Shown: one piece after another, positions 18,808 to 37,966 of the stretch
How positions within the stretch are numbered: position 1 is the first letter of the stretch
How the letters are laid out: every line of letters starts with the position of its first letter
Assembly (NCBI GenBank): GCA_028712365.1
Contig: JAQTQE010000003.1
Coordinates: 20,173 to 84,172, forward strand
DNA: 64,000 nucleotides
Reading direction: 5' to 3'
Source of the DNA: a bacterium
GTDB lineage: Bacteria > CAYTYR01 > UBA6262
The notes under the pieces: model-generated
Seen by the model: only the letters and a program-made list of their open reading frames with translations
Database searches by the model: none
What the model was told of the DNA's origin: nothing
Made by a program: the position numbers and the translations under genes

Positions 18808-18822
18808 TCTAAGGCGGCTATC

Positions 18823-20502: not shown

Positions 20503-20511
20503 GGAGGATTT

Positions 20512-20859
20512 ATGAAGCGGTTATTATTAGCGGTAATGTTCGTTTCGCTCTATGCTAACTTTGCTTTAGCACATCCACCCACAGCCATTCAGGTGAAAGC
20601 CATTGATGCCACCCAAATAGAAGTGACTATTCTCCACGGGACCAAGAATCCTGACGTCCATCATATAGAAGAAATCATCATTTTTTTAAACGAGCAAAAA
20701 ATTATTGCGCAAAAATTCAGCACCCAACAAGATAGCGGCACACAAAAAGCAGTCTATAATTTACCCGAATTGGTCAAAATTCCTAAAGCTGTTATCAAAG
20801 TATATGCTGATTGCAATAAAGGCGGGGACATGACCAAAGAATTTGTCCTGGGGAAATAA
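20512..20859 (+). CDS. Secreted small protein with a superoxide-reductase-like (neelaredoxin-like) fold, lacking one canonical His ligand
   Basis: Signal peptide. AHPP, VHHIEEI and ADCNKGG align with the SOR HxP / HHIxWI / CNxHG motifs, but the His after the Cys is absent. Confidence 0.35.
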   Translation: MKRLLLAVMFVSLYANFALAHPPTAIQVKAIDATQIEVTILHGTKNPDVHHIEEIIIFLNEQKIIAQKFSTQQDSGTQKAVYNLPELVKIPKAVIKVYADCNKGGDMTKEFVLGK

Positions 20860-20871
20860 ATTATTCCGGAA

Positions 20872-21372
20872 TTAAGACCATAGGCCGATAATCCCGCCAA
20901 TAAGTGCCAGGGAGGACAGATAATAGCCCAGATCAATAAGATATGCGATCACTGATTTGCGTTCCCACAAGACACTGCCCAATAAGACCGGAACGACGAT
21001 TCCCAGCCACAACCAAAAACCTATTTTAACTCCATCACTAAATGATGTAGCATGCAACAAACATTCCAAATAAGCCAGTATATAGCTCATCAGCAGTGCC
21101 GCGCAAAATTGAAGAACATAATATTTACCCAGGCTTTTTTGTTTTGTTTGGGCCAGGTCTTCAGGAGATAGTCTGGAATATTTTTGCCATTCATTACCAA
21201 ACAAAAGCGGTGAATACCAAACCGCTCCAGTGAGCATAGCCATGATCGCAGCTAATAATACCAGTAAATAATTAATGTCTGCTTGCCACATTACCATCCT
21301 CCTTGTAAAAAATCTGCGACTTTTCTTACAATTTCCCCAATGCCCGGTCAGTTCTCTGCACCCCAGCGGCAT
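20872..21372 (-). CDS. Hypothetical integral membrane protein (4 TM segments)
   Basis: Hydrophobicity pattern only. Confidence 0.4.
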   Translation of the reverse strand: MPLGCRELTGHWGNCKKSRRFFTRRMVMWQADINYLLVLLAAIMAMLTGAVWYSPLLFGNEWQKYSRLSPEDLAQTKQKSLGKYYVLQFCAALLMSYILAYLECLLHATSFSDGVKIGFWLWLGIVVPVLLGSVLWERKSVIAYLIDLGYYLSSLALIGGIIGLWS

Positions 21373-22189
21373 TATTTTTTTCCTGGTATAACTGCTTGGC
21401 TTTACTTAGCATTTTTACGGCCTGCTTCTTTGCTCCTAAAAGGTTATGGGTCATACCAAGATTATAATAAACATCCGCGCTGTTAGGTTTCAATTCTAAA
21501 GCTTTCTGATAGGCGGCTAAAGCCCGCTCATGATCATTCATATTACGATAAGTATTACCCATATTATTATACGCGTTAAAATTATCAGACTTCAGATCGA
21601 TCGAAGACTGATAAGAAGCTAAAGCCGCGGAGTATTTACCCATAGCATTCTGACAATTACCTATCCCGTTATAGACCTGAAAATCATCCGGCTGGGTCGC
21701 CAGGACCTTTCTATAGGCTTCTTCTGCTTCAGCATACCGGCCCAAAGAATAATATGTATTACCCAAATTAAAATAGGCGTCAATATTCACGATCTTAGCT
21801 TTTATGACTTTTTTCAGGGCGGCGGCTTTTGCACTTGGCTCAGGCCTGGGCACTGGCCTGGTTTCCATCTGCCTGGCCGGGACCTTCTCCGCAACAGGTT
21901 CTATTTGCTTCTTCATGGTCAGGACCTTAATAGCTTCAACCTGCTTTATAATACCAGCCAGCTCGTCGGCCTCTTTTATTTTCCCTTTGTTCCGGAATAT
22001 TTTTTCCGCTTTGGCATAAGCTTCCGCAGACTCCGGCCACTGGTTTTGCGCCAGGTACTTATCTCCTTCAGCTATAAAAGTCCTGGCCTTTTTAATCTCT
22101 GCCGGCGACTCTGCGACATTATTTATAAAATAGATCGCATTAATAAAAAGCAAGATCACTAATAAACTAATAGCGATTTTCTCTTTCAT
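21326..22189 (-). CDS. Exported TPR-repeat protein
   Basis: Signal peptide and repeated TPR consensus (AxxYxxLGxxYxxxGxYxEAxxxYxKAL). Confidence 0.7.
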   Translation of the reverse strand: MKEKIAISLLVILLFINAIYFINNVAESPAEIKKARTFIAEGDKYLAQNQWPESAEAYAKAEKIFRNKGKIKEADELAGIIKQVEAIKVLTMKKQIEPVAEKVPARQMETRPVPRPEPSAKAAALKKVIKAKIVNIDAYFNLGNTYYSLGRYAEAEEAYRKVLATQPDDFQVYNGIGNCQNAMGKYSAALASYQSSIDLKSDNFNAYNNMGNTYRNMNDHERALAAYQKALELKPNSADVYYNLGMTHNLLGAKKQAVKMLSKAKQLYQEKNNAAGVQRTDRALGKL

Positions 22190-22199: not shown

Positions 22200-24230
22200 T
22201 TATATCAAGTGCAAAATATTCAATGCCTGGTTAGCCAAACCTCCCACTACCACAGCCAGGGTAATGGTAAAAAGCGTAATAAAAGCAGCTGTTTTCCAGC
22301 CAAGCTCCTTGATCAATACCGAGATAGCGGCCAGACAAGGGATATATAGCGTGGTTACTAAACCAAAAATAAAGATCTGCTGTTTATTCATAAAATTAAG
22401 CAGGTTTTGGACATTCGGCCCATATTGGACAATAGCCAGCGCCAGCAAAAGCTGGAGCGCCAGTTCTTTCCTAAGAATACCGAATAACAAACAGATCCCA
22501 GCCACCGCCGGCAGACCCAACCAATTTTCAACGATTAGGCTCATCGGACGAGTCAGATACCATAAGTACTTGGTCTCATATAAACTCCCTAATAACAAAC
22601 TGCCTATGGCAATGATGGGTATCGCGATAATAATGAATTCTTTAAATCTGTACCAGGTCTTTTTTAATACCGTAGACAAGCGCGGGATCCTAAAAGGGAA
22701 CATTTCCATTACTAATCCTGATGACTGCCCCGGCAAAAATACGGCCAGAGCGCGTCCGACCAGTATACCAACCAGAAAATCGATCAAATAAATAGCTACC
22801 GCCCATTTCCATCCCGCAAAAAACGCAACTGCTCCCATAATGATAGCGGTTCTCGCGCTGCATGGCACCAAGGTGATCAGAGTACAGGCAATGATCTTTT
22901 CCCGGCGCGTGGTCAAAACCCTGGTTCCAAGGATAGCCGGGACATTGCAGCCTGCGCCGGCGATAATAGGGATAATCGATCGCCCATGCAGCCCGATCTT
23001 GTGCATCAAGCTGTCAGTAAGAAAAGCTATCGAATTTAAATAGCCGGTATCTTCAAGAAAAGCCAGCATTAGATAAAAGATCAGGATATACGGGATCCCT
23101 ACTGAAAGCGCGGCCTGGATCCCCGCGTCAAATCCCCAAAGCAGAGTATTGGCTATAGTATTATGACCAAAAATAGCAAAGATAAGAAACTTAATGTAGG
23201 GCGAAATAAACCGCACCCAGAGAGTATCGAACCCCGCTGATAAAAAGCCGCCACAATAATACATGATCAGGAATACCGCCACAAGACCAGCCAATAAAAT
23301 AGGCAATCCAGTAACAGGCTCTAGCGAAAAACGCCAAAGTTTAGTAGATAGAGACACTTGACAAACCCCTATCTGTTGCACCTTGTCGGCTAAAAATCCT
23401 TCATAGCCATGCCGCTCCCGGGATATTCTGATAGCTGGTTTTTCTCCATGAGTTCTTTCAATTTCCTCCAGTATGGCTTTGGCTTTGTCGTATACTGCCG
23501 GGCCGTGCAGGCTTGTGGTCAGATAATTCAGGAATTCTTCATCTTGCTCCAGGACAAGAATAGCCAGGGCTCTGGCGGATAAGCCAAAAGGGATCTGTTT
23601 CACATTCTGGCTGATTATCCCCTCAAGATCATTAATATGATCCATAATATCTTTGCCATAAACAGGCAAATTAGCTTTCATTTTTACATTCTGCTGAAAG
23701 ATGTTAATACAAGTTTCAATCAGTTTTTCTATACCCTCGCCGGTAGTCGCGGTCATGGGAATAACCGGCACACCCAAATACTCGCTAAGTTTGTCGGTAT
23801 TAACGCAAATATTATGTTTAGCGGCAAGATCCATTAAATTACAGGCCACCACTACCGGGAAACCAAGATCAATAAGCTGGAGAACTAAATATAAATTTCG
23901 TTCCAAGTTGGTAGCATCTACGATCACTACCACCACATTGGCATGACCCTCGAATATTTCCTGTCTGGCCACAAACTGGTCTTCAGAAACTGATCCCAAT
24001 GAATATGTGCCGGGCAGGTCTATGATACCCATATAAATATTCTGGTACTTTGCCATACCGACATTTAGGGCAACTGTTTTACCAGGATAGTTAGCAGTAA
24101 CCGCGCCTAGCCCTGTCAAATGATTAAAGACAGTTGATTTGCCCACATTAGGATTGCCCACCAGGGCAATAGTAAAGCTGGTTTCCTGTCTGATCTTTTG
24201 TATTTCTGACTCGTAATTATTCTTGTTCAT
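22200..24230 (-). CDS. feoB: Ferrous iron transporter FeoB
   Basis: N-terminal G-protein motifs (ALVGNPNVGKSTVFN, DLPG) and a C-terminal polytopic membrane domain. Confidence 0.9.
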   Translation of the reverse strand: MNKNNYESEIQKIRQETSFTIALVGNPNVGKSTVFNHLTGLGAVTANYPGKTVALNVGMAKYQNIYMGIIDLPGTYSLGSVSEDQFVARQEIFEGHANVVVVIVDATNLERNLYLVLQLIDLGFPVVVACNLMDLAAKHNICVNTDKLSEYLGVPVIPMTATTGEGIEKLIETCINIFQQNVKMKANLPVYGKDIMDHINDLEGIISQNVKQIPFGLSARALAILVLEQDEEFLNYLTTSLHGPAVYDKAKAILEEIERTHGEKPAIRISRERHGYEGFLADKVQQIGVCQVSLSTKLWRFSLEPVTGLPILLAGLVAVFLIMYYCGGFLSAGFDTLWVRFISPYIKFLIFAIFGHNTIANTLLWGFDAGIQAALSVGIPYILIFYLMLAFLEDTGYLNSIAFLTDSLMHKIGLHGRSIIPIIAGAGCNVPAILGTRVLTTRREKIIACTLITLVPCSARTAIIMGAVAFFAGWKWAVAIYLIDFLVGILVGRALAVFLPGQSSGLVMEMFPFRIPRLSTVLKKTWYRFKEFIIIAIPIIAIGSLLLGSLYETKYLWYLTRPMSLIVENWLGLPAVAGICLLFGILRKELALQLLLALAIVQYGPNVQNLLNFMNKQQIFIFGLVTTLYIPCLAAISVLIKELGWKTAAFITLFTITLAVVVGGLANQALNILHLI

Positions 24231-24879
24231 ATTTTTTCACCCAGATCGATTCGGCGATCTTTTTACCAAGAGCGTATGTTGCCTCACCGATCCTAACCAT
24301 GATCGGCCCGTCAAAAGGAGCTTTTTCTTCAATGCGTATTTTCATTTTAGGCATTAAGCCTAACGTAGCTAAATAACAAAGAAGTTTCGGGTCTTCATCT
24401 GTTATTTTCACTATTTTGGCTTTATCATTCTTTTGCAGGGTATTAAGTGGATATGACCGTTCTTCTTTAATATGACCTTTGGCATCAGGAAGAGGATTAC
24501 CGTGCGGACAGGTTTTAGGTTTTCCTAACACCTCATATAATTTATTACCGACCACTTTGGAGATACCATGTTCTATTTTATGGGCTTCTTCATGCACTTT
24601 TTCCCATTTTAGGCCTAGCTTATCAACCAAGAATCGCTCTGCCAGCCGGTGTCGCCTTACTACATCAACGGCAATATTTTTTCCTTTAAGCGTAAGAGCA
24701 ACACCTTTATATGGGGAATGTTTTACCAGCTCTTCCTTGGCCAGCTTTTTCAGGTTTTCAGAAACTGAGGCCGGGGAGATCTTGAGATGCTGGGCTATGT
24801 CCTGCGTGGTTGGTGTTTTTCCCTCTGATTCAAGGTGGAATATTGTTTCCAGGTAGTCTTCTTGGTTTTTTGTCGCCAT
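24217..24879 (-). CDS. DtxR/MntR-family metal-dependent repressor fused to a C-terminal FeoA (SH3-like) domain
   Basis: N-terminal EDYLETIFHL…TQDIAQHLKISPASVSE wHTH, the DtxR dimerisation region, and a C-terminal FeoA-like β-barrel. Overlaps feoB. Confidence 0.8.
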   Translation of the reverse strand: MATKNQEDYLETIFHLESEGKTPTTQDIAQHLKISPASVSENLKKLAKEELVKHSPYKGVALTLKGKNIAVDVVRRHRLAERFLVDKLGLKWEKVHEEAHKIEHGISKVVGNKLYEVLGKPKTCPHGNPLPDAKGHIKEERSYPLNTLQKNDKAKIVKITDEDPKLLCYLATLGLMPKMKIRIEEKAPFDGPIMVRIGEATYALGKKIAESIWVKKYEQE

Positions 24880-25681: not shown

Positions 25682-26200
25682 TTAGGCAAGTTCTTTCCTC
25701 ATAAAATCCAGGAGCGCCTGCATGATCCTTGAAGGGCTGGGCGGACAGCCGGAGATATGCAATGCCACCGGCACAATCTCATTAATTTTCTTATCAATAT
25801 AATATGATCCTTTAAAGAGCCCCCCGTCCAAAGCGCAATCACCAACAGTTATGACAAATTTCGGCTCAGGCATGGCATCGTAAGTCTTTTTTAAGGCGAT
25901 CTCCATATTTTTAGATAACGGGCCGGTCACCATTAGGGCGTCAGCATGCCGTGGGGAGGCTACAAAATTAATACCAAATCTTTGCAGGTCATATATAGGA
26001 TTATTAACAGCCATAATCTCTGATTCACAAGCACCACAAGAGCCAGTATCCACTTCCCGGAGATGCAGGGACCGGCCAAATTTCCGGCGAATCTCTTTTT
26101 TAAGTTCCAAACCTATAGATTCAAGCGCGGCGGCTTGCTCCGGTTTTAATGACCGGGTCACTATTTTTTTTAATAATCTGGTTTTAATTATACTATACAT
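25682..26200 (-). CDS. Group-4 hydrogenase-type small subunit (NuoB/HycG/HyfI-like), [4Fe-4S] ligands retained
   Basis: CGAC (hydrogenase-type CxxC rather than complex-I CC), DCALDGG and GCPPSP motifs. Confidence 0.8.
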   Translation of the reverse strand: MYSIIKTRLLKKIVTRSLKPEQAAALESIGLELKKEIRRKFGRSLHLREVDTGSCGACESEIMAVNNPIYDLQRFGINFVASPRHADALMVTGPLSKNMEIALKKTYDAMPEPKFVITVGDCALDGGLFKGSYYIDKKINEIVPVALHISGCPPSPSRIMQALLDFMRKELA

Positions 26201-26211
26201 GGCAGTGTCCT

Positions 26212-27789
26212 CTAAAGATCATTCCCGGCATAAGATAAGTCAAAGCTTTTATTACAGAGCGGGAAATCAGGAATAATTTCTCCTATAACCGCGTAAGATA
26301 ATCCTGGCCAGTTATGAAAAGACGGATCTGTGATCTTACATCTTTCAATAATTCCGGCAGGATTAGTTTTTAGCCAGTAAAGCACAGGCCCTCTCCACCC
26401 TTCGCTATAACCCAAAGCCTTGCCGCTCACAGGATTGATCTTGCTGTCCTCTGTCTCGGCAGAGCTGATCTTGTTTAAAAATTCAGCGATCAGGCGTCCT
26501 GACTCATTAAATTCCTCTATTCTCACTTTTAACCTGGCCAGAACATCCCCGGCTCGGCCAGTGATAATTTTGTGCTTGGCTTCGTGATATAGGCTTGGAA
26601 AATGCTTGCGCAAGTCAATTTTTACGCCAGCAGCGCGGCCAGCCAGTCCCAGTACTCCCAAGTCCTCGGCTATTTCCATTTTTAGGGTGCCTGTGCCGTC
26701 AACTCTATCCACAAAAGAAACACTATTATCCAGAATTTCGACTAAAGCCGTAAAATCTTCCTTGATCTTGCTTAACGCGGCAGTTAATTCTTCTTGCTGT
26801 TCAGGATTCATCTCCAATGATATCCCACCCAGCTTATTCATTCCTTTTAGATACCTGCTGCCAGTGAGTTTTTCATTAGCCTGCAAGATAGATTCTTTAA
26901 TTATAGCGGCCAGGGCAGCCGGGAAACTAAAACCGACATCCAGGGCAATTCCACCTATATCATTGACATGATTATACATTCTTTCCAGTTCCAATACTAT
27001 TGCCCGGCAATAAGCTGTTTTTTTACCTATTGTTATACCAGCTATCTTTTCGGCAGCCAGGCTATAAGCCAAACTATGGGCAATAACTGAATCTCCAGAG
27101 ACACATTCGGCTAATAGCAACCCTGCGGCCAGGGATTTACCCTCAAATAGTTTTTCCACACCACGGTGGGTAAATCCTAACCTGGATTCAAGATGGATGA
27201 TCGGTTCGCCGGCAACACTAAACCGGAAATGCCCGGGGCCGATAATACCCGCGTGAACTGGTCCAACAGGTACTTCAAATATCCCCTCGCCTTCCACCCT
27301 GGCGAATTTGTAGTCTTTCTTTTCCCCGGCAATTATCTCCCGGAAATCTTTGCGTAACGGATAATTGCCAGTGGGCCAGACCTCGTCATGCAATCTCAGT
27401 CTTCTCAGGTCTGGATTACCTCTGGGCTCTAATCCGAACATCTCCCATATTTCCCTTTCAAAGAGATGAGCTGAATAAATATCCTTAGCCAGAGAATCAA
27501 AATAAGGATCAACCGAGGGGATATCCAAGCTAACCGCTACCCATTGCCCCTGCGGTATATTGAGAAAATAGCAATAAATAGTAAATTTAGCCTGCTTTTG
27601 CCGGTCATCTACAGCAAAGAACGCCATTACCGGGGAAGACAAGGATTCGTGCAAAACCAGGCATACCTTTCTAAAATCTTCCGCTTTGACCTGTATCACT
27701 ATCTCATCAGCATAAGGAATAGTAACAGCTATAGCTTTAAAGTTTGGCTGTTTATTATTTATAATGGTAATAAGATCTGTACCAGGCAT
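26212..27789 (-). CDS. Fused NuoC-NuoD / HycE-HyfG-like large subunit lacking the NiFe-binding cysteines (Ehr-like)
   Basis: The GPVHAGIIGPGHFRF…THRGVEKL…AECVSGDSVIAHSLAY block aligns gaplessly to ERVCGICSFAHSTAY, giving SxxS in place of CxxC. The C-terminus has …PLCNKSFD in place of DPCxSCxxR. Confidence 0.8.
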   Translation of the reverse strand: MPGTDLITIINNKQPNFKAIAVTIPYADEIVIQVKAEDFRKVCLVLHESLSSPVMAFFAVDDRQKQAKFTIYCYFLNIPQGQWVAVSLDIPSVDPYFDSLAKDIYSAHLFEREIWEMFGLEPRGNPDLRRLRLHDEVWPTGNYPLRKDFREIIAGEKKDYKFARVEGEGIFEVPVGPVHAGIIGPGHFRFSVAGEPIIHLESRLGFTHRGVEKLFEGKSLAAGLLLAECVSGDSVIAHSLAYSLAAEKIAGITIGKKTAYCRAIVLELERMYNHVNDIGGIALDVGFSFPAALAAIIKESILQANEKLTGSRYLKGMNKLGGISLEMNPEQQEELTAALSKIKEDFTALVEILDNSVSFVDRVDGTGTLKMEIAEDLGVLGLAGRAAGVKIDLRKHFPSLYHEAKHKIITGRAGDVLARLKVRIEEFNESGRLIAEFLNKISSAETEDSKINPVSGKALGYSEGWRGPVLYWLKTNPAGIIERCKITDPSFHNWPGLSYAVIGEIIPDFPLCNKSFDLSYAGNDL

Positions 27790-29216
27790 AACAAATCCTC
27801 TCTAAAATAGATCAGTGCCGGGCCGGTGGCACAAATCAAAATAAGCAAAAATGCAAAAGCTATTTTCCCGCTAAGTGGTTCTTTTTGCACCGTCATATTC
27901 TTAGGAAGATGGCCAAAAAGCATTTCACTGAAACGGTAAATAAAAGCTCCGAAAATGACCACTAAAAACAGTAATATGGCTCCAGCTACGACATAAGCGC
28001 CTTTATTAAAAGCTCCCATAATGATCAGGAATTCACTTATAAATATGGAGAATGGCGGGAACCCGGTCAAGGCGAACATCCCCAATAAAACAATAATCCC
28101 GGTATAAGGCAAAGCCTTGATCACTCCGCGTATACTATGCAGGTTATGAGTATTATAAGCTCTCACCATATTGCTGGCGCCAAAAAACATTAATGATTTG
28201 GTCACTGCGTGATTAAAAATGTGCAGCAAAGCTCCCAGGAATCCCCATGGTGTTCCCAAACCAAGACCAATGGCAATAATACCTATATGTTCGATACTGC
28301 TATACGCCAATAATCGTTTCAGGTCCTTTTGGATCAGGATAAAACAGCAGGAAATAGCCAACGAAACTATCCCCAACAAGAGCAGTAAATGTCCAAAATA
28401 GGCAAATCCCACGCTTTTAATCACTATAAATCCGAATCTAAGGATCGCATAAATAGCAGTTTTCAATAAAACCCCGGAGAGCAGCGCGCTCACCGGGCCA
28501 ACTGCCTGGCTGTGCGCATCAGGCAGCCAGTTATGCATAGGAGCCAAACCTGCTTTAGTCCCATATCCAACTAAAATAAAGATAAAAGCTATTTTAATGA
28601 CTTTTGGGTCCAGAGCACTGGCGGTAGAAACCGCTTCTGTCCAGTTCAGGCTCTTCATACATCCGGAAATAGAAAACGCATATGAAAACAAGATCGTGCC
28701 TAATAAGGCAAAAATGATCCCGGCTGAACAAATAATAATGTATTTCCAGGCCGCTTCTACTGATTTCTTAGTATTATAGAATCCGACCAAAAAAGCGGAA
28801 ACCAGGGTGGTCATTTCTATGGCCACCCACATCAAACCAAGGTTATTGACCAAAGGCACTAAAAACATAGAAAAGCAAAACAGGTTAAAAAGCAAATAGT
28901 ATGTCTTCGCTTTTTTCCCAGAGATGCTACCCTGCGCTATATCTTTATTGATATACCCGATGGAATAAAGAGCAGTAGCCAGAGCAACTACGGCAATGAC
29001 AAAAATAAAGTAAGCGCTTAGGGTGTCAGCCACTAAGAAATGATACGCTGTTACCAATCCATTATTAACAACTACTTCCCGCAACAGCAAAACGCTGGCG
29101 ATAAGCATGCCAAAATACCCCAGGACATTTACTATCCCGAAAGACCTGGCATCCCTGGCCAGGAAAATCCCGGCTGCCAGTAAAAGCGGTACACCCAACA
29201 GGAATATCAGTAGCAT
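27759..29216 (-). CDS. Antiporter-like membrane subunit (NuoN/NuoM / HyfF-HyfD-like)
   Basis: About 14 TM segments; conserved Mrp/NuoLMN-type motifs (WLPDAHSQAVGPVSALLSG). Confidence 0.75.
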   Translation of the reverse strand: MLLIFLLGVPLLLAAGIFLARDARSFGIVNVLGYFGMLIASVLLLREVVVNNGLVTAYHFLVADTLSAYFIFVIAVVALATALYSIGYINKDIAQGSISGKKAKTYYLLFNLFCFSMFLVPLVNNLGLMWVAIEMTTLVSAFLVGFYNTKKSVEAAWKYIIICSAGIIFALLGTILFSYAFSISGCMKSLNWTEAVSTASALDPKVIKIAFIFILVGYGTKAGLAPMHNWLPDAHSQAVGPVSALLSGVLLKTAIYAILRFGFIVIKSVGFAYFGHLLLLLGIVSLAISCCFILIQKDLKRLLAYSSIEHIGIIAIGLGLGTPWGFLGALLHIFNHAVTKSLMFFGASNMVRAYNTHNLHSIRGVIKALPYTGIIVLLGMFALTGFPPFSIFISEFLIIMGAFNKGAYVVAGAILLFLVVIFGAFIYRFSEMLFGHLPKNMTVQKEPLSGKIAFAFLLILICATGPALIYFREDLLCLVQILLPL

Positions 29217-29223
29217 CTATGTC

Positions 29224-29883
29224 TTATCCCCTTAACCGTGATAATCTATTTACATCAATGTGCGTAAAAAGCTTATTAATCCTGTACACAAAGAAACCCA
29301 TAATGACCACACTGACGAAAACATCAAAAAAGATGGCTATCTCCACAAAAAACGGCATCCCGCCCAATACTGCAGACGCCAACAGGAATAATCCGTTCTC
29401 CATTACCAGCAAGCCAATGATCTGCGCCATGGCTGTTAACCTGAAGATCATCAGGAACATTCCGGTTAGAAGTATAAAAAAAGCCACGGCCGGAAGAATA
29501 GCCATAGCTTCTGAAAAGGACATAAGCTGCTTACTAAAGACCCAGGACATATAAGCAAAACCCAAAGCTAAAAGTAAGGAAACCTGGATATTCGCTATCA
29601 AGCCAAGATTCTCCCGCACGTTTATTTTTTTCATGGTATATTGTAAAAAATATGGTATCCCTATTACTTTCAGGATAAAGATCAAACCAGCTACGATATA
29701 AAGGCTTGTTTGCTTCTCTTCTAACGCTATAATCAGGGTAGCCAAGAAGAGGAAAAACGATTGGTAACGGAAACTCCTGACCAGTGCCGGAGTTCTTTTG
29801 GCAATAACCATTAAGAAGGTGGCAACTAATAATCCAAATATACTTACTTCCTGCATTCTTTCAACTCCTTGAGATTGTGTCAT
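29224..29883 (-). CDS. HyfE-like small membrane subunit (hydrogenase-4 component E type)
   Basis: About 216 aa with 6-7 TM segments. Its position between the NuoH-like and NuoN-like genes matches the hyf operon. Confidence 0.6.
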   Translation of the reverse strand: MTQSQGVERMQEVSIFGLLVATFLMVIAKRTPALVRSFRYQSFFLFLATLIIALEEKQTSLYIVAGLIFILKVIGIPYFLQYTMKKINVRENLGLIANIQVSLLLALGFAYMSWVFSKQLMSFSEAMAILPAVAFFILLTGMFLMIFRLTAMAQIIGLLVMENGLFLLASAVLGGMPFFVEIAIFFDVFVSVVIMGFFVYRINKLFTHIDVNRLSRLRG

Positions 29884-29955
29884 AACATATTTTTAAAGCG
29901 AGCATATATAATCAATATATGTAAGTTGAAAAAGGTGTTGTGACACAGTCTCAGT

Positions 29956-30828
29956 TCAATATCCGAGCACAGCACATAAAGCAGCAATCGCTGCCAGGAC
30001 AAAACCAAAACCAAAAAAATCAACCGCCCGGAATAACCGCATTTTAGCGACCGCTATTTCTAATAACGATATAACTATGGCCACTAAAATGACCCTGACT
30101 GCATACCAAAATCCCCATAAGATCAATGGCAGACCGGTTATACCAACCGGATCAGCTACCGGCAATAATACCTGGGCTATGATCAAAATCCAGACCATTT
30201 GCCGAATATAGGAAGCTAATTCTATCAGGGCCAGTGAACGACCCGAATATTCCAGGATCATGGCTTCATGGATCATAGTTAATTCCAAATGGGTTTCCTG
30301 GTTGTCTATCGGGATACGCGCTGTTTCCGCGATCATTACCAGGAACAGGGCAACTCCGGCGATAAGAGCGGAAATAGTCGCTAAAGGGAAGCTTTTCCAT
30401 GCCAGCAGGTCAGTAGATCCGCTCTGCAAAGACACGGCAAAACAAGCTAAGCAAGCGACTGGTTCGCTTAAGCTGGAGATAAACATCTCCCGGGAGGAAC
30501 CCATACCACCAAAAGTGCTGCCAGTGTCCAAAGCAGCTAAAGATAAGAAAAAACGGCCCAGGGAAAAAATAAAGATCAGAGCCAGGAATTCACCCAAATA
30601 AAACAATGAGGCCAGAGCTGAAGCAAAGATCACAAAAGGAGCTATCCTGAATATCCAGGAAGCAGTTCCTGAAACTACCTCTCCTTTATTAAAATATTTT
30701 GCCAAATTATAATATGGCTGGAGAATACTTTGCCCCTGGCGCATCCTGAGATCATTCTTGATCTTGGTGATCAATCCACCCAGTAGCGGAGCAATGATTA
30801 TACCCACCAGTATCATTAGTAATTTCAT
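29956..30828 (-). CDS. NuoH/HycD-like membrane subunit
   Basis: N-terminus resembles HycD (…IIAPLLGGLITKIKNDLRMRQGQSILQPYYNLAKYF…). Confidence 0.75.
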   Translation of the reverse strand: MKLLMILVGIIIAPLLGGLITKIKNDLRMRQGQSILQPYYNLAKYFNKGEVVSGTASWIFRIAPFVIFASALASLFYLGEFLALIFIFSLGRFFLSLAALDTGSTFGGMGSSREMFISSLSEPVACLACFAVSLQSGSTDLLAWKSFPLATISALIAGVALFLVMIAETARIPIDNQETHLELTMIHEAMILEYSGRSLALIELASYIRQMVWILIIAQVLLPVADPVGITGLPLILWGFWYAVRVILVAIVISLLEIAVAKMRLFRAVDFFGFGFVLAAIAALCAVLGY

Positions 30829-32673
30829 TTAAAACTTCCTTACGAACAGGATCAATAAAAAAATTGTGATCGCGATGTACGCCAAGTAAACATGAATACT
30901 GCCTGGTTGGATCCTTCTCATGAATCTGGCAGACTTAAAGGTCAAGCCTAAAGCCGGTTCGTATATATACTTCTTAAAAACTAATGTAGTATGGGTTTCA
31001 TAAGTCATGGAGCGGATGTGGTAAAAAGAATCTCCGATTTTTTTGGTAGCCCGGTACGGCCGCAGGAAGAAACTAAAAGCGATCCGGAATGGTTTAGAAA
31101 ATCCGGTAGCCGTATATTCATGACGCTCATCCAGCTGGTAATAGCCGCAATCCCAGGTATTATAAGGTATGCTTGTTTTTTTCCGGAAGGCCCTATACAC
31201 CGCGAAACCCAATAATCCACACAAGATCAGGATGAGCGCTATGATCAATGGGGCTAAGACCGCTTTATTACCAGCCAGAGGTTGGATAGTAATATTATTC
31301 AAGCTAAAGTCCAGGCCAGTAGTATTAACGCCTAAAGAGAACCCGGCAACTTGCGATAAGGGATTAATTATAATCGCGGCTCCCAATCCAAAAATAATGG
31401 TTAATCCCGCCAGGAACAACATGCCTATTCTCATCGATATTGGTACTTCCACTGCTTTGACCGCGTAATCGCTTCTGGGCTTAGCTAAAAAAATTATTCC
31501 AAAAGCCTTAACAAAACAAGCCGCGGCCAAACCGCTGGTTAAAGCCAGCATCGCCGCGCAAAATCCTAAAAATACTTTACCATCCCCGGCAATATGCCAG
31601 GCTCCCATAAAAAACGCCTGCAGAGCCAGCCATTCACTGACAAACCCGTTTAAGGGAGGCAAGGCTGAAATACCCATAGCGCCAATAAGGAAACAAAAAG
31701 CAGTTAACGGCATAGTACGGATCAGGCCCCCTAGTTTTTCCATATTTCTGGTCCCAGTGGCTTTATATACGCTTCCCGCGCATAAAAATAGCAATCCTTT
31801 AAATATGGCATGATTTATTAAATGATATAAACCAGCAAGCAAGGCCAATATGGCCCAATAAGCCATATTTTTACTCATAAAATACATAGCTAACCCTACT
31901 CCGAGCAGGATGATACCGATGTTTTCCACACTGCTATAAGCCAAGAGCTTTTTAAGGTCTTGGTCCATTAAAGCGTAAATCACTCCTACCAGGCAGGAAA
32001 TAATAGCCAAAACCAGAATAAGTGTGCCCCACCATGTATTATTAACACCAAGCAAGTAGAGCACAAACCGGATCAGGCCGTAAATCGCTGTCTTGATCAT
32101 AACCCCGGACATCATGCTGGATATATGGCTGGGTGCCTGGGGATGCGCATAAGGCAGCCATATATGTAAAGGGACAATCCCAGCCTTAGTCCCGAATCCG
32201 ATCAACAAAAAAATGAAAACAATATTTTTAATATACGCAGGCAGGCTTTGGCTGGCCATTTTTACCAGCTTAAAATCAAAAGAGTGCGCGTGTTTATATA
32301 AAATTAAAAAAGCGGCTATTAAAAAAGCAGTGCCTGCATGCGTCATGACCACGTAAATTGTCCCTGCTCGTATTGACTTTTCATGTTCAGAATCAAACAC
32401 CACCAGGAAATATGAAAGCAGGGACATTATTTCCCAGGCAACAAGAAAAGCCAGCATATTACTGACCGTGACTACAACCAGCATAGACAAGACAAACAAA
32501 AAGGTCAGAATTTGCCCTATTAATATTTTAGCCGGGGAATATTCTTTTTTAAGATAGCCGAACGAATAGACAAACGAAGGTATGGTAACAATAAGGATTG
32601 TAGCCAAGAAGAAGAGCGAAAGTGGATCTATGGGGAATAAAATAATATTATTAAAAAGATTACTCATAGACAT
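30829..32673 (-). CDS. NuoL/HyfB-like antiporter-type membrane subunit
   Basis: 614 aa, about 16 TM segments, WLPYAHPQAPSHISSMMSG motif. Confidence 0.75.
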   Translation of the reverse strand: MSMSNLFNNIILFPIDPLSLFFLATILIVTIPSFVYSFGYLKKEYSPAKILIGQILTFLFVLSMLVVVTVSNMLAFLVAWEIMSLLSYFLVVFDSEHEKSIRAGTIYVVMTHAGTAFLIAAFLILYKHAHSFDFKLVKMASQSLPAYIKNIVFIFLLIGFGTKAGIVPLHIWLPYAHPQAPSHISSMMSGVMIKTAIYGLIRFVLYLLGVNNTWWGTLILVLAIISCLVGVIYALMDQDLKKLLAYSSVENIGIILLGVGLAMYFMSKNMAYWAILALLAGLYHLINHAIFKGLLFLCAGSVYKATGTRNMEKLGGLIRTMPLTAFCFLIGAMGISALPPLNGFVSEWLALQAFFMGAWHIAGDGKVFLGFCAAMLALTSGLAAACFVKAFGIIFLAKPRSDYAVKAVEVPISMRIGMLFLAGLTIIFGLGAAIIINPLSQVAGFSLGVNTTGLDFSLNNITIQPLAGNKAVLAPLIIALILILCGLLGFAVYRAFRKKTSIPYNTWDCGYYQLDERHEYTATGFSKPFRIAFSFFLRPYRATKKIGDSFYHIRSMTYETHTTLVFKKYIYEPALGLTFKSARFMRRIQPGSIHVYLAYIAITIFLLILFVRKF

Positions 32674-32782
32674 AAATGAAATAAAGACCCCCGCCTGCTT
32701 CTAAAAAGGAGTCTTTAGATATATTAAATAATACTCGTTTTCTGGTGTTTTTGCAAGACTTTTATTTAGGTCTGGGGATCCC

Positions 32783-34133: not shown

Positions 34134-34412
34134 TTAAGTTCTCTTTTTGCTTAGTCTTTTGAGTTCTTTTATATCGCCTTTTATCAACTCAAGTTTTTTC
34201 AGCTTACTCCATCTTTTAATCTGTCTTTCTCTATCATATGCTTGTAGTTCTTCGTCGAAATGTTCTGTATAGATAATTTTATTAGGCTTGCTGCTCTTTG
34301 TATACCCTCCGCCCTTACCAGAAACATGTTCTTGAAATCTTCTTTTTAAATTCCCAGTAACTCCGGTGTAATACTTTCCATTTCCACATTCAAGAATATA
34401 CAAATACCACAT
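34134..34412 (-). CDS. Small GIY-YIG nuclease-family protein (YhbQ/UPF0213-like)
   Basis: WYLYILECGNGKYYTGVTGNLKRRFQEH…RERQIKRWSKLKKLELI fits the ~95-aa stand-alone GIY-YIG family. Confidence 0.75.
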   Translation of the reverse strand: MWYLYILECGNGKYYTGVTGNLKRRFQEHVSGKGGGYTKSSKPNKIIYTEHFDEELQAYDRERQIKRWSKLKKLELIKGDIKELKRLSKKRT

Positions 34413-34527: not shown

Positions 34528-34848
34528 ACTGCCTGGGTAGGACTCGAACCTACAACCTAGCGGTTACAAGTATCCTCTGAGTTTCTTCAGAGCTTGGACT
34601 ATCTCATTCTCTTGTCCGAATGATCCCGGATTTAGAGAGTGGGCGCTTCCCCTAAATATTTCTAGAGTACTCCCTTGCGGGATAGTCTCTGCGCCTTCTC
34701 CGATTTTCCTTCGGAGCTTGGCTCAGGGTTACCTTACACCTTCCGGCAATCAGGGTTCCCTGAATTCACCCACTTTTTCAACCACGATTTCTCGTGGAAG
34801 CTGCAATTTTAATCACAGCCGCTCGCTCCACCATTGAGCTACCAGGCA
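34528..34848 (-). tRNA. tRNA-Asn(GUU) interrupted in the anticodon loop by a group I intron (exons 34815-34848 and 34528-34565)
   Basis: 5' exon UGCCUGG-UA-GCUC-AAUGGUG-GAGC-G-AGCGG-CUGU; 3' exon UAA-CCGCU-AGGUU-GUAGG-UUCGAGU-CCUAC-CCAGGCA-G. Joined, this gives a cloverleaf with loop CUGUUAA (GUU), U1:A72 and discriminator G73 as in bacterial tRNA-Asn. Confidence 0.7.
34566..34814 (-). ncRNA. Group I intron (249 nt, no ORF) within tRNA-Asn
   Basis: Splice site follows U (…GCUGU|), and the IGS GCAGC pairs with exon GCUGU including a U·G wobble. P2 hairpin CCACGAGAAATCGTGG. R element GCGCAGAGACTA and S element GAGATAGTCC form P7. P9 hairpin CTCTGAAGAAACTCAGAG. Terminal ωG. Confidence 0.65.
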
Positions 34849-34899
34849 ATCTCGTTATACATATCACTTTCACTTATGCTTATTACTTTTATTTTAGAA

Positions 34900-35841
34900 C
34901 TATACACCTGCTTTATTCGAGCATTCTTCCATCATTTGCAGCCAAGCCCAGTTTTCGTCAATATTCTTCTGGATCTCCGCTACTATACCAGCATTTTCCG
35001 GACGTAACAGATGCTTAAATCTTGTTTGCAGTTTTAAATATTCGGTTATCGGCTTCTTTTCTTTCGGTTTTACATTAATTTTGTATTTACCATCGACTAC
35101 TTCATAGATCGGCCAGAAACATGTCTCTACTGCGAGTCGACCCAAGACCGCTGTGTCTGCCGGATTATAACCCCAGCCCAAACGGCATGGCTGCAAGACA
35201 TTTATAAAAGTAGGCCCATCTGTTTCCAAAGCTTTTTGTACTTTAGTGGTAAGATCGTTCCAGTAGCCAACCGCAGTTTGGCCGACATAAGGAATATTAT
35301 GCGCGACCATGACTTTAGTCAAATCTTTCTTGATCTGTTCCTTCCCTTTTTTCACTTTGCCTACCGGGGAAGTGGAAGCATACGCTCCCAGGGGAGTAGC
35401 TGATGATCTTTGTATACCGGTATTCATATAGGCTTCATTATTATAACAAACATACAGCATCCTGTGCCTGCGTTCCATTGCCCCGGATAATGACTGGAAT
35501 CCTATATCATACGTGCCGCCATCACCGCCGAAGGTAATAAAACGAATATCCTTGTCAACTTTCCCTGTTCTCTTTAAAGCTTTATACGCTGCCTCCATAC
35601 CACTGCAAGAAGCCGCCGCGTTTTCAAACGCACTATGGAACCATGAGGTTTTCCAAGCGCTGAACGGGTAAATGGTGGTAGATACTTCCAGGCAACCGGT
35701 AGCATTAGCTACGACCACTGGCTTATCTGCTGCCGCCATCATTACCTGCCGGGCAATTATTCCCGCGCCGCAACCAGCGCAAAGCCTATGCCCGCCACTG
35801 AGTAATTCCGGCCTTTTAGATAATTCTTTTAGATTTGCCAT
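34900..35841 (-). CDS. porB: 2-Oxoacid (pyruvate/ketoisovalerate):ferredoxin oxidoreductase, β subunit (TPP-binding)
   Basis: CAGCG…GDGG TPP-binding motifs; four-gene γ-δ-α-β operon. Confidence 0.85.
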   Translation of the reverse strand: MANLKELSKRPELLSGGHRLCAGCGAGIIARQVMMAAADKPVVVANATGCLEVSTTIYPFSAWKTSWFHSAFENAAASCSGMEAAYKALKRTGKVDKDIRFITFGGDGGTYDIGFQSLSGAMERRHRMLYVCYNNEAYMNTGIQRSSATPLGAYASTSPVGKVKKGKEQIKKDLTKVMVAHNIPYVGQTAVGYWNDLTTKVQKALETDGPTFINVLQPCRLGWGYNPADTAVLGRLAVETCFWPIYEVVDGKYKINVKPKEKKPITEYLKLQTRFKHLLRPENAGIVAEIQKNIDENWAWLQMMEECSNKAGV

Positions 35842-35875
35842 TATTTTAAATCCTCCTTAAGATTGCACAGTCTTA

Positions 35876-37054
35876 CTACTCCCTGACGCCGATATATTTC
35901 GTATTAGTATCTGTCTTACCGCTTAATAATTCCTGATAGATATCAGTGATCATTTCTACGGTGATATCCCGGCCGCCTAAACCATAGACATAACTGGCGA
36001 TCTTTGGTTTCTTGTCCAATTCGTACAAGCAAGACCGTACTTCAGAACAAACTGGCGGAACGTAACCATTATATCCGTCATGCCGGTCCATTACGCCAAC
36101 TACTTTGACATTTTTTAATGCTTCCCTGATATCATCAAAGGGGAATGGACGAAAAACTCTTATTTTAAGCATGCCTATTTTCTTGCCTTGTTTTCTCATT
36201 TCATCTATAACCACTTTTGCCGTACCGGCAGTTGAGCCGAGGACAACGATCGCGGCCTCAGCGTCTTCTAATTTATAGGTTTCGATCATATCATAACTGC
36301 GACCGAATTTCTGCCCGAATTCTTTGCCAATTTCCTTGATCACTTTGGTAGCCTTGCGCATCGCTTCGATCTCTTGCCGTTTGTGTTCAAAATAATAATC
36401 CTGGAGGTCTATCGCCCCCAGGGTGAAAGGATGATCCACGTCCAGTAGCCAGTTTTTTGGTTTATATGAACCAACGAATTCTTTTACTTGCTCGTCTGGC
36501 AGCATTTCAATAGCTTCCATGCAATGGCTGATAATGAATCCGTCCGTAGATACGGTAGCTGGCAAGAGCACGTCAGGATGTTCACATATTCTAACTGCCT
36601 GGATCATGCTGTCATACGCTTCCTGTGAGTTTTCACAATAGATCTGCAAAAATCCGGAATCACGCGCGCCCATAGTGTCGCTCTGGTCCCCATGGATATT
36701 GATCGGCGCGGACAAAGCGCGGTTAACTTCAGCGATTACGATCGGCAGCCTTAATCCAGCGGCAATATACATCATTTCATACATGAGTGCCAGCCCTTGG
36801 CTGGAAGTACCAGTCATAGCCCTGGCTCCGGCCGCTGAAGCACCGATACAGGCGCTCAAAGCGCTGTGTTCGCTTTCTACAGCGACGAATTCCGTGTTAA
36901 CTAATCCATCAGCCACGAACTGCGAAAAAATCTGCACTATTTCAGTGGCTGGAGTGATCGGATATGCTGCTACTACGTCAGGATTGATCTGGCGCATGGC
37001 CTCAGCCATGGCTTCATTTCCTGTTTTTGCTTTTAAATTCTTTTTTTCTGGCAT
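35876..37054 (-). CDS. porA: 2-Oxoacid:ferredoxin oxidoreductase, α subunit
   Basis: N-terminus GNEAMAEAMRQINPDVVAAYPITPATE is typical of PorA/VorA. Confidence 0.85.
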   Translation of the reverse strand: MPEKKNLKAKTGNEAMAEAMRQINPDVVAAYPITPATEIVQIFSQFVADGLVNTEFVAVESEHSALSACIGASAAGARAMTGTSSQGLALMYEMMYIAAGLRLPIVIAEVNRALSAPINIHGDQSDTMGARDSGFLQIYCENSQEAYDSMIQAVRICEHPDVLLPATVSTDGFIISHCMEAIEMLPDEQVKEFVGSYKPKNWLLDVDHPFTLGAIDLQDYYFEHKRQEIEAMRKATKVIKEIGKEFGQKFGRSYDMIETYKLEDAEAAIVVLGSTAGTAKVVIDEMRKQGKKIGMLKIRVFRPFPFDDIREALKNVKVVGVMDRHDGYNGYVPPVCSEVRSCLYELDKKPKIASYVYGLGGRDITVEMITDIYQELLSGKTDTNTKYIGVRE

Positions 37055-37071
37055 TATATTATATCCTCCAT

Positions 37072-37380
37072 TTACTTCTTCTCGGCTTCCATCTTAATGG
37101 CTTTATTGCCTTTTTTCCCCGGGCACTCTGTCGCGCATATACCGCAACCTTTGCAATGTTTATAATCAAATCCTGTCATCTGGCCATCTTTAACAATGAC
37201 CGATGAATCCGGGCAATAGACCCAGCAAAATAAGCATTGGATACAGTTTTCAGGGATCCATACCGGCTTTTCACTGCGCCAATCACCGGTTTCAAACGCT
37301 GCCGCGCTGCCAGCTTCCAGGTAGTCACAGGCTGGCAAGTCTTTCCAGCCTTTTTTCTTTTCTACTTTAATATCTGCCAT
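37072..37380 (-). CDS. porD: 2-Oxoacid:ferredoxin oxidoreductase, δ subunit (2×[4Fe-4S] ferredoxin)
   Basis: CIQCLFCWVYCP and CKGCGICATECP motifs. Confidence 0.8.
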   Translation of the reverse strand: MADIKVEKKKGWKDLPACDYLEAGSAAAFETGDWRSEKPVWIPENCIQCLFCWVYCPDSSVIVKDGQMTGFDYKHCKGCGICATECPGKKGNKAIKMEAEKK

Positions 37381-37384
37381 ATAT

Positions 37385-37966
37385 TTACTCCTCGCCTTTC
37401 ACTTCTTGGTATGCCCGTTGAATGGATTTAATATTACCTTCCACTATTTCTGGACGATTCTTAAATTTAGCTGTCAATTTCTTGCGGTTATCTTCCACCA
37501 TGCGCTCAAAATTGATCAAGCCGGTTACTTTGGCCAATGCTCCTAACATAGGAGTATTGGGAATGTCTTTACCAATAGTCTCACGTGAAATCGCTGAAGC
37601 GTCAACAGTATATACTTTACCTTTGGTCAATCCCAGCTTCGCTTTGATGTCTTTTGGCGTTTCACTGGTATTAATAATGATCGCCCCATCATCAGGCAAT
37701 CCCTGGGTTACGTCTACCTTGCCGATCAAAGTAGGGTCCAGCACTACCACTACACTGGGATTAGTAACTCCGCAATGAATAGTGATCGGTTCATTACTCA
37801 ACCGGTCAAAGGACTGCACCGGAGCGCCCATACGTTCCGGGCCGTATTCCGGAAAAGCTTGAATATACAAGCCTTCTCCCAACGCTGCATCAGCAAACAA
37901 CAAGGCCGCTGTTTTAGCACCTTGTCCGCCACGCCCATGCCAGCGGATTTCTGTTAACTTGCCCAT
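37385..37966 (-). CDS. porG: 2-Oxoacid:ferredoxin oxidoreductase, γ subunit
   Basis: PorG-like pattern EIRWHGRGGQGAKTAA…. Confidence 0.8.
   Translation of the reverse strand: MGKLTEIRWHGRGGQGAKTAALLFADAALGEGLYIQAFPEYGPERMGAPVQSFDRLSNEPITIHCGVTNPSVVVVLDPTLIGKVDVTQGLPDDGAIIINTSETPKDIKAKLGLTKGKVYTVDASAISRETIGKDIPNTPMLGALAKVTGLINFERMVEDNRKKLTAKFKNRPEIVEGNIKSIQRAYQEVKGEE

Follow-up and report, generated by a model that had tools for sequence, protein, structure and literature searches.

What does a hydrogenase-like membrane complex do once its large subunit no longer holds a [NiFe] site? The question is raised by six co-directional genes on the minus strand of a 64-kb window of a Candidatus Omnitrophota genome (the whole stretch of DNA that was analyzed: 64,000 nt of contig JAQTQE010000003.1, assembly GCA_028712365.1). 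An initial annotation, made from the sequence without database searches, had placed the genes in the order hyfB-C-E-F-G-I and likened their products to the poorly characterized energy-converting hydrogenase related (Ehr) class. Our analysis assigns the locus as a complete ehrABCDLS operon and a member of the Ehr/Hyq family. In our preferred reading, to which we give a probability of roughly 0.55, this family member is a minimal, ion-translocating redox module with a single cluster and not a canonical [NiFe] hydrogenase.

The ehr cassette and its relatives

Six intact and tightly packed open reading frames (ORFs) occupy positions 25682-32673 (Table 1), with intergenic gaps of 0, 72, 7, -31, and 11 nt in the order of transcription; the 31-nt overlap of ehrD and ehrL recurs in an Omnitrophota relative (L002). 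ORFs, Pfam and NCBIfam assignments agree with the gene order and limits given initially. As all NCBIfam Hyf matches of the six proteins fall below the equivalog cutoffs, we classify the proteins as Hyf-like, not Hyf. In the NCBI annotation, EhrL is named 'NADH-quinone oxidoreductase subunit C'.

An exhaustive search with EhrL against 1.84 billion representative sequences yielded 873 clusters below 1e-30. Scanning one genome per GTDB species, we confirmed at least 594 species with relatives of the cassette. They belong to many phyla, among them Omnitrophota, Saganbacteria, Nitrospirota, Acidobacteriota, Verrucomicrobiota, Rokubacteria, Chloroflexota, Firmicutes, Actinomycetes, and Thaumarchaeota. 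About 80 loci from many of these phyla were kept for comparison, and in these the gene order is A-B-C-D-L-S or S-A-B-C-D-L. Among the matches listed, the best one in the GTDB-species genomes is 61% identical, and loci with the same cassette in metagenome-assembled genomes (MAGs) of Nitrospira reach 42-44% identity. The top 120 EhrL homologues are 60-85% identical, and those with organism names belong mostly to Candidatus Omnitrophota.

The Ehr complex of Geobacter sulfurreducens was reportedly treated by Coppi in 2005 and by Marreiros et al. in 2013. Since Ehr has been described since 2005 and Hyq since 2009, the novelty of the window locus is limited to its host lineage and to clade-specific substitutions. 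Ehr received its name in Geobacter. The G. sulfurreducens complex consists of EhrA-1/A-2, B, C, D, L, and S (GSU0739-0745), is considered a Cys-less relative of energy-converting hydrogenases, and has subunits that are more abundant in formate-grown cells (PMC7894505). Compared by published description, it shares with the window locus the kinds and roles of its subunits and a large subunit without [NiFe] cysteines. It differs in having two EhrA copies and seven genes, whereas the window encodes a single EhrA; the EhrL of the Omnitrophota clade is marked by G184 and C229. Elsewhere, the wording 'close to group 4f, lacks CxxC' has been applied to an Ehr of Nitrospira (PMC10284858), and about half of all Nitrospirales genomes carry Ehr, whose expression does not respond to H2 (PMC12342949). 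Ehr has also been reported in Elusimicrobia and in Margulis-, Sagan-, and Melainabacteria, the latter three together with a speculative link between formate dehydrogenase and Ehr (PMC6349859). HydDB deliberately leaves Ehr out, on the grounds that the family does not metabolize H2.

The designation of Ehr as poorly characterized needs a qualification, since in vivo genetics exist for the rhizobial Hyq (PMC2650096, PMC3357923). The rhizobial hyqRBCEFGI 'endo-hydrogenase' encodes HyqG (504 aa), which fuses NuoC with NuoD and 'lacks both Cys-X-X-Cys motifs', and HyqI, which carries Cys55, Cys58, and Cys152 (PMC3357923). Its six structural genes stand in an order identical to that of the window, and the Cys numbering of the short, stub-type HyqI coincides with that of EhrS. 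On pRL11 of R. johnstonii 3841, a regulator is followed by genes for hyfB, NuoH, HyfE, HyfF, NuoC(D), and NuoB; the HyqG-type protein of this locus is 37% identical to EhrL (E = 1e-94) and has the same SGDS and NKSF..SYSG.DL motifs, within GRTSGDSTVAY and DFPLCNKSFNCSYSGHDL. Three differences separate the two systems. The rhizobial hyq operon has its own regulator gene and is under NifA control, whereas the window locus has no such regulator; HyqG possesses the loop Glu (IIEPGHFRF) and the conserved Cys258 and Cys497, which EhrL lacks; and Hyq hosts are microaerobic diazotrophs with quinones, whereas the host of the window, with genes for a 2-oxoacid:ferredoxin oxidoreductase (POR) and desulfoferrodoxin, looks like a ferredoxin-based anaerobe.

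Replacement of the [NiFe] site in EhrL

In a phmmer search of all PDB sequences, EhrL best matched HycE of E. coli (7z0s_E, 1.9e-56), followed by NuoD/Nqo4 of complex I and by MbhL. Aligned to HycE, the N-terminal site ECVSGDSVIAH of EhrL lies opposite RVCGICGFAH, with both Cys replaced by Ser and the Arg by Cys, and the SxxS motif recognized initially is thus retained. The C-terminal site had to be moved. It had been read as CxxS in PLCNKSFD, which would leave up to one of the four [NiFe] ligands, but the alignment places EhrL DFPLCNKSFDLSYAGN opposite HycE DAPLIIGSLDPCYSCT, so that the block is DLSYAGNDL and its ligand positions are S519 and G522. Because C512 of PLCNKS faces an Ile of HycE, none of the four ligands remains. 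The same S, S, S, and G were obtained at the four positions in a MAFFT alignment of 151 sequences. Neither the L1 motif RxCGxCxxxH nor the L2 motif [DP]xCxxCxxR of group 4 is present, and alignment with HycE, part of the check proposed with the initial annotation, confirms that both CxxC motifs are gone. The end of EhrL (...GNDL) coincides with that of mature HycE, and the protein therefore has no protease-cleaved C-terminal extension. An AlphaFold2 model of EhrL, computed with 47 family members as input, reached a pLDDT of 91.3 and found HycE as its top Foldseek match (TM-score 0.93, 29% identity); the PDB copy searched contained no Ehr-type structure.

We scanned the window with Pfam on every ORF of at least 90 aa and for CxxCxxCxxxC motifs in all frames. 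No hyp, HycI-type, separate NuoI/HycF/HyfA/HyfH, or formate dehydrogenase gene was found in the 64 kb, which extends to the whole window the earlier remark that HyfA/HyfH and hyp genes are missing at the locus. A frame or alignment error that hides intact CxxC motifs is ruled out by the two alignments and by the uninterrupted ORF. A conventional Hyf-type [NiFe] hydrogenase that was simply misread has next to no probability, given the S, S, S, and G in both alignments, the intact ORF, and a window without hyp and HycI genes. What speaks for it is that the best family matches are models of the HyfB/HyfE/HyfF type and HycE. Although HycE is the best solved relative of EhrL and the genes follow the order hyfB-C-E-F-G-I, the window locus differs from E. 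coli Hyc (7Z0S) and Hyf in having no [NiFe] site, no HycF/HyfH, HyfA/HycB, or HyfD, no FdhF partner, and no HycI-cleaved extension.

The residues that took the place of the ligands are themselves conserved. The tail KSF[DN]LSY.G.DL is kept in 120/120 close homologues, and Y520, G522, and D524 are invariant in our family alignment A1. Among the best 150 representatives, about 27 have Cys at both N-terminal ligand positions (22 at all four); the rest are Cys-less, their N-terminal site reading S/A, G, D, and then S/T/N/E and their C-terminal site L-S-Y-x-G-x-D-L. D233 is found in 109 of 124 Cys-less representatives, at a position held by V or A in Cys-containing relatives, which read ER.CG.C...H and NKSFELCY.C.DR. 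Since the motifs are the same in all 120 close homologues, this pattern is not due to chance. The [NiFe] site is gone, and a predicted polar pocket, conserved in the family and composed of S-G-D-S and L-S-Y-x-G-x-D-L, stands in its place.

In a rough neighbor-joining tree, nearly all Cys-less sequences form one clade beside a Cys-containing, group-4f-like grade, and the EhrL of the window falls inside this clade. The clade, the gene order conserved in about 80 loci, and the composition known from the literature all agree with the Ehr-class assignment. The six-gene 'Ehr' of Desulfotomaculum ruminis (Desru_3260-3265), which has all four Cys, fits the Cys-containing grade, where we also find a Desulfotomaculum MAG (L056). 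These Cys-containing 'Ehr', or group 4f-type, complexes share the cassette with the window locus, are its closest Cys-containing relatives in the tree, and have DFPL.NKSF and the missing C-terminal extension in common with it. However, they keep ER.CG.C and LCY.C.DR, whereas in EhrL the ligand positions are occupied by S, S, S, and G, and D233 stands in place of V/A.

Within the family, the Omnitrophota clade carries substitutions of its own. Few stretches of the family are as well conserved as the beta1-beta2 loop of EhrL, VGPVHAGII.PGHFRF. Its Glu, which HycE shares with at least 90% of the wider family, is the proton donor in hydrogenases, as known from the membrane-bound hydrogenase (MBH). 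In 120/120 Omnitrophota-type homologues it is replaced by Gly (G184, window 27235-27237). C229 (window 27103-27105), in turn, occupies the position of the RxCGxC Arg in 105/120 close homologues, and C484 (26338-26340) and C512 (26254-26256) are also conserved in Omnitrophota-type EhrL.

A polar pocket where the [NiFe] site used to be could, in principle, still act on H2. A non-canonical hydrogenase with a novel catalytic site in the EhrL/EhrS pocket seems rather improbable to us. Genetic data on A. caulinodans speak for it. There, hyq depends on NifA, and diazotrophic growth is slower once the operon is deleted (PMC2650096); deletion in a hupSL mutant lowers the very high microaerobic H2 output by ~80%, and H2 evolution persists in a nifK hupSL mutant (PMC3357923). 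HyqG, like EhrL, is devoid of both CxxC motifs. Also kept are the flanking motifs of hydrogenases and the CxxC loop of the cluster, and most members have the proton-donor Glu as well. These data are genetic and in vivo, however, and the effect could be indirect, for example through the supply of reductant to another enzyme; in the view of the Hyq authors, a Ni,Fe site is 'uncertain, if not unlikely' (PMC3357923). EhrL has neither Ni/Fe ligands nor a processed extension, hyp genes are absent from the 64 kb, and the clade of the window has lost the loop Glu. Ehr expression that is not raised by H2 in N. moscoviensis (PMC12342949) and the exclusion of the family from HydDB point in the same direction.

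An operon that has lost its catalytic cysteines could also be an evolutionary relic drifting to loss. This was stated for G. sulfurreducens KN400, in a paper that considers Ehr to be without function and describes missense mutations found after prolonged culture (PMC13194489). For the window locus we consider this very improbable. All six ORFs are intact and tightly coupled, and the ratio of nonsynonymous to synonymous substitution rates (dN/dS) is 0.065-0.097 for each of the six genes when compared to the relative L084, at a dS near saturation. The replacement residues are conserved across phyla, the cassette persists in at least 594 species, and Ehr proteins are detected and regulated in Geobacter (PMC7894505). 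Strong purifying selection and motifs shared by 120/120 homologues thus indicate that the cassette is functional and not decaying.

Cluster, membrane arm, and proposed mechanism

If no [NiFe] site is left, which redox centers does the complex have? EhrS retains C55-x-x-C58, C122, and C152, in line with the initial statement that all four [4Fe-4S] cysteines and a hydrogenase-type CxxC are present. Their spacing is that of MbhJ and HycG (matched at 1.2e-30 and 1.6e-29, respectively), not that of the tandem CC in NuoB, and the four Cys are kept in 72-77 of about 80 homologous small subunits. One Cys-ligated, CxxC-type [4Fe-4S] cluster is accordingly the sole cofactor predicted for the peripheral arm formed by EhrL and EhrS.

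The locus had also been said to have no HycF/NuoI-type ferredoxin. This is correct for a separate gene anywhere in the 64 kb, but a Cys-free stub is fused to EhrS. The first ~16 residues of EhrS contain no Cys and follow the pattern MF.I.KK.LKTG.VT, which also begins long EhrS forms with one or two [4Fe-4S] motifs. Two full CxxCxxCxxxCP motifs precede the NuoB-like part in Thermincola, Acetobacterium, Desulfitobacteriia, and some Acidobacteriota; the Cys of a single cluster remain in many Acidobacteriota, Verrucomicrobiota, and Thaumarchaeota; and short forms with only a ~50-residue, Cys-free linker occur in the window, in Nitrospirota, Rokubacteria, and rhizobia, and in the remaining members. 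Residues 1-111 of one EhrS (L047) match HycF (7z0s_F, 6.3e-14). Because the linker starts with the pattern of the long forms, the HycF/NuoI subunit is not simply missing but was fused to EhrS and then pared down. We found no description of this graded series of HycF/NuoI-NuoB fusions (two, one, and zero clusters) in the searchable literature. In Cys-less loci, the HycF-like clusters are gone in 43 of 71, and the full three-cluster wire is retained in seven.

The cultured Bacillota strain Ectobacillus funiculus JCM 11201 (L062) combines an EhrL that has all four [NiFe] Cys with a stub EhrS, which suggests that electrons can reach the proximal cluster even when the relay is missing. This locus may offer a tractable minimal hydrogenase for comparison. 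In six loci (L013, L019, L036, L039, L052, and L061), EhrS has T, D, G, E, or S in place of 3-4 of its proximal-cluster Cys, giving the patterns TCDD, DCGD, TEGD, and SEGD. All six have the gene order S-A-B-C-D-L, Cys-less EhrL motifs, and a complete set of pump residues, and would amount to complex-I-like machines with zero predicted redox cofactors.

The membrane arm EhrA/B/C/D holds every canonical ion-pumping residue. EhrA E81, K163, K292, and E347 are invariant (66 homologues), and EhrD, whose best solved relative is MbhH (6cfw_H, 3.4e-37) with a further match to MbsH, conserves E134, K221, K340, and E395 in 64-70 of 70 homologues. The Glu of transmembrane helix (TM) 5, the Lys of TM7, the Lys and His of TM11, and the Glu of TM12 are present across many phyla (66/66 in EhrA, 64-70/70 in EhrD). 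In EhrB, the TM5-6 loop residues D175, E182, E188, and E193-Y-S-G as well as E122, E168, and E257 are invariant or nearly so (68 homologues), which covers the acidic residues of this loop and of the E-channel. At least 90% of 59 EhrC homologues share K72, R148, E162, and D187. A three-loop coupling apparatus has been described for MBH, MBS, and complex I (PMC7684303), and the same apparatus is intact in Ehr.

Taken together, we propose that the complex operates on the principle of complex I or of membrane-bound hydrogenases, in a stripped-down form. Through two conserved loops, beta1-beta2 in EhrL and TM5-6 in EhrB, the redox or charge state of the cluster in EhrS and of the pocket in EhrL would be communicated to the antiporter-like EhrA and EhrD, and electron transfer would thereby be coupled, probably reversibly, to the translocation of H+ or Na+. 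As no relay subunit is present, electrons would pass straight between the EhrS cluster and a soluble carrier of single electrons. Our best guess for this carrier is reduced ferredoxin, since the genome is anaerobe-like, with POR next door and a desulfoferrodoxin gene, and a second redox partner would bind in the remodeled EhrL pocket. We favor a redox role because some relatives with a Cys-less EhrL keep HycF-like domains with one or two clusters fused to EhrS, a wire that would be purposeless without electron flow. The Azorhizobium data may reflect either direct H2 chemistry or an indirect effect of a reversible, gradient-coupled electron module of low potential.

A related system is MBS of Pyrococcus furiosus (6U8Y), likewise a complex I relative that has lost [NiFe] catalysis, has kept the three-loop coupling, and uses the region of the proximal [4Fe-4S] cluster for new chemistry. 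The similarity has limits: MbsL keeps two of the four Cys, and MbsJ has a shortened Cys loop that gives a three-Cys catalytic cluster, unlike the normal CxxC spacing of EhrS. MBS also comprises 13 subunits, including the NuoI-type MbsN and a full Mrp-like module, whereas the window locus has no MbsN and four membrane subunits, and the identity between EhrL and MbsL is low (E = 1.7e-19). With complex I, the locus shares homologous NuoB, C, D, H, and L/M/N modules, the loss of the four [NiFe] Cys, and conserved pump residues. Yet it consists of only six genes as opposed to at least 11 subunits; there are no counterparts of NuoA, E, F, G, I, J, or K (no NuoA, I, J, or K homologue was found in the window), and the tandem CC of NuoB and His38/Tyr87 of NuoD stand against CxxC in EhrS and I183/G232 in EhrL.

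Several observations weigh against the preferred reading of an ion-translocating redox module. In an ungapped alignment with T. thermophilus Nqo4, I183 and G232 of EhrL fall on the quinone-site residues His38 and Tyr87, and a complex-I-like quinone site is therefore not evident. Ehr members are also found in Acetobacterium, which, to our knowledge, lacks quinones. The Omnitrophota clade has given up the loop Glu that donates protons in hydrogenases (E184G), and a plain 'not a hydrogenase' view leaves the Hyq-dependent H2 production of A. caulinodans unexplained. The adjacency of POR and ehr is confined to very close relatives, with unrelated flanks in more distant Omnitrophota. Clustering of 674 flanking ORFs from the ~80 loci revealed no conserved electron donor or acceptor module beside the cassette, and for this reason any redox partners named for Ehr are guesses. 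Finally, some Ehr lineages lack any cluster ligands. Since six relatives lost 3-4 cluster Cys and kept everything else, the Ehr scaffold may need no redox chemistry at all.

A rival reading is an ion transporter that is independent of redox chemistry, i.e., an Mrp-like cation/proton antiporter or channel in which the peripheral arm serves as a plug, an ion entry site, or a regulatory cap (redox, iron, O2) and the [4Fe-4S] cluster is structural or regulatory. We regard this as unlikely. It would account for the stepwise loss of cofactors within the family ([NiFe] in all; the HycF-like clusters in 43 of 71 Cys-less loci; the proximal-cluster Cys in six loci), for the lack of conserved donor and acceptor genes, and for the Asp and Ser gained and conserved in the EhrL pocket. 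Metal and redox regulators are frequent neighbors, as with ArsR-type regulators upstream in 12 loci, DtxR/Feo in the window, and Rrf2 in L002. On the other hand, the cluster Cys are retained in more than 90% of members, including the EhrS of the window, and seven Cys-less loci possess the full three-cluster wire. A 525-aa peripheral subunit at a dN/dS of ~0.1 would be a costly cap, and Mrp functions without such an arm (PMC7684303). Mrp antiporters have no NuoB/NuoD-type arm, whereas the window encodes EhrL/EhrS and a NuoH homologue and no MrpB, C, E, F, or G.

A more radical proposal, which we hold only tentatively and think unlikely, departs further from the redox module. Ehr/Hyq might be a complex-I-type ion machine that is driven or gated by chemistry in its new, Cys-free polar pocket (S-G-D-S, S-Y-x-G-x-D) and no conventional oxidoreductase. 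It could take two forms: an ion pump or substrate-coupled pump that needs no cofactor, conceivable because some relatives have no predicted redox center, or a new non-[NiFe] site that produces H2, to which the Azorhizobium genetics would point. On this view, the Omnitrophota clade would represent a further variant, with the loop Glu changed to Gly and with C229, C484, and C512.

Of the members of the complex I superfamily that have no assigned function, Ehr/Hyq is one of the most widespread, and its hosts include nitrifiers, acetogens, rhizobia, actinomycetes, and ammonia-oxidizing archaea. Knowing its ion-coupled reaction would fill a gap in the metabolic models of many uncultured lineages and would bear on the evolution of complex I from hydrogenases. 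The window locus adds an Omnitrophota example and by itself makes the function of the family no more testable. Experimental handles come from the family patterns, namely the replacement pocket of EhrL, the stepwise loss of the HycF-like relay and, in some lineages, of the last Fe-S cluster, and the invariant pump residues, for which Geobacter, Rhizobium, and Nitrospira are tractable hosts.

Locus coordinates and the surrounding 64 kb

Table 1 Features of the ehr locus and its neighborhood, in window coordinates (aa, amino acids)
Feature	Position	Strand	Remarks
ehrA, NuoL/HyfB-like antiporter-type membrane subunit	30829..32673	-	614 aa; Pfam Proton_antipo_M 2.8e-57; NCBIfam HyfB 5e-189, under equivalog cutoff
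ehrB, NuoH/HyfC-like membrane anchor	29956..30828	-	290 aa; Pfam NADHdh 4.3e-28
ehrC, HyfE-like small membrane subunit	29224..29883	-	219 aa; NCBIfam hydrogenase-4 membrane subunit HyfE 2.8e-22, under cutoff
ehrD, NuoN/M/HyfF-like antiporter-type subunit	27759..29216	-	485 aa; Pfam Proton_antipo_M 1.5e-51; NCBIfam HyfF 1.4e-140
ehrL, fused NuoC-NuoD/HycE-like large subunit, without [NiFe] ligands	26212..27789	-	525 aa; Pfam Complex1_30kDa and Complex1_49kDa
ehrS, NuoB/HycG-like small subunit, one predicted [4Fe-4S] site	25682..26200	-	172 aa; Pfam Oxidored_q6 2.7e-29
Former N-terminal [NiFe] motif, now ECVSGDSVIAHS (C229, S231, G232, D233, S234)	27073..27108	-	HycE alignment; coordinates checked by translation
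Former C-terminal [NiFe] motif, now DLSYAGNDL (S519, Y520, G522, D524), stop codon directly after	26215..26241	-	Aligned to HycE DPCYSCT
beta1-beta2 coupling loop VGPVHAGIIGPGHFRF, G184 for conserved Glu	27220..27267	-	Loop Glu position from family alignments
ehrS N-terminal stub MYSIIKTRLLKKIVTR, vestige of a fused HycF/NuoI-like domain	26153..26200	-	Pattern shared with long EhrS forms
Promoter-like site in the 109-nt spacer 5' of ehrA	32728..32756	-	TTGCAA-17-TATTAT, 9/12 matches; weak evidence
Four-subunit POR operon (gamma, delta-ferredoxin, alpha, beta)	34900-37966	-	2.2 kb upstream of ehrA
DtxR-family iron-dependent repressor with FeoA domain, and FeoB	22200-24879	-	Downstream of the cassette; syntenic in L084/L085

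Scans for promoters and terminators gave no excess over shuffled background, and an Rfam search 5' of ehrA revealed no riboswitch or other RNA element. Upstream and on the same strand lie the POR operon, an intron-split tRNA-Asn, a GIY-YIG ORF, a TPR protein, and a CsgG-like lipoprotein; downstream, the cassette is followed by a lipoprotein (probable start 25626), the DtxR/FeoA regulator, FeoB, and another TPR protein. The only ORF of the window with 2x[4Fe-4S] is the delta subunit of POR (37072-37380), and the desulfoferrodoxin gene is found at 1876-2313. The backbone POR...ehr...DtxR-FeoB-TPR is syntenic in L084/L085, the closest long relative (EhrL 79% identical), which has neither the TPR/CsgG-like pair nor the co-directional lipoprotein. 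No homologue of the three flanking proteins (lipoprotein, CsgG-like, and TPR) was detected beside the cassette in the ~80 loci. We thus discarded these genes as parts of the system: lipoprotein and TPR genes do flank the locus on both sides, as first noted, but as incidental neighbors and not as conserved partners.

Among the recurrent neighbors in the 674-ORF clustering, an ArsR-type regulator is the most common (12 loci), and sigma-54 regulators and ABC components also recur; an Rrf2 regulator adjoins the cassette in L002. The Omnitrophota loci L002/L003 also contain a second complex-I/Mrp-like cluster (15769-21590) 3.5 kb downstream of the ehr cassette, in which three antiporter-type genes are followed by NuoJ-like and NuoK-like genes. 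In the Nitrospirota loci L018 and L069, two complete ehr cassettes stand in tandem and encode proteins ~40-50% identical to those of the window.

Further features of the window lie outside the cassette. The anticodon loop of tRNA-Asn(GUU) (34528-34849, minus strand) is split by a 248-nt group I intron with its core at 34575-34824 (Rfam RF00028, 79.9 bits), and ARAGORN recognizes the tRNA only with its intron option. A hairpin past this tRNA is followed by the free-standing GIY-YIG endonuclease ORF (34134-34412, minus strand), and the succession of POR-beta and GIY-YIG is common to the relative L084. About 10 kb downstream of the cassette (13758-16083, minus strand), CbiM and a PDGLE-domain protein (Co/Ni uptake) are encoded together with an ArsR-type regulator and an ArsP-type permease, and a 1098-aa ORF at 6026-9322 (minus strand) has zero Pfam matches at E ≤ 0.01. 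Finally, an island of low G+C content (31-36% versus ~43%) at ~46000-60000 looks like a defense island. Its genes encode a type I restriction-modification system (HsdR, 59639-62608; HsdS, 62735-63898), Fic, a DUF4062/HATPase_c_4 protein, a UvrD-like helicase, and a radical SAM protein, in addition to several ORFs without family matches.

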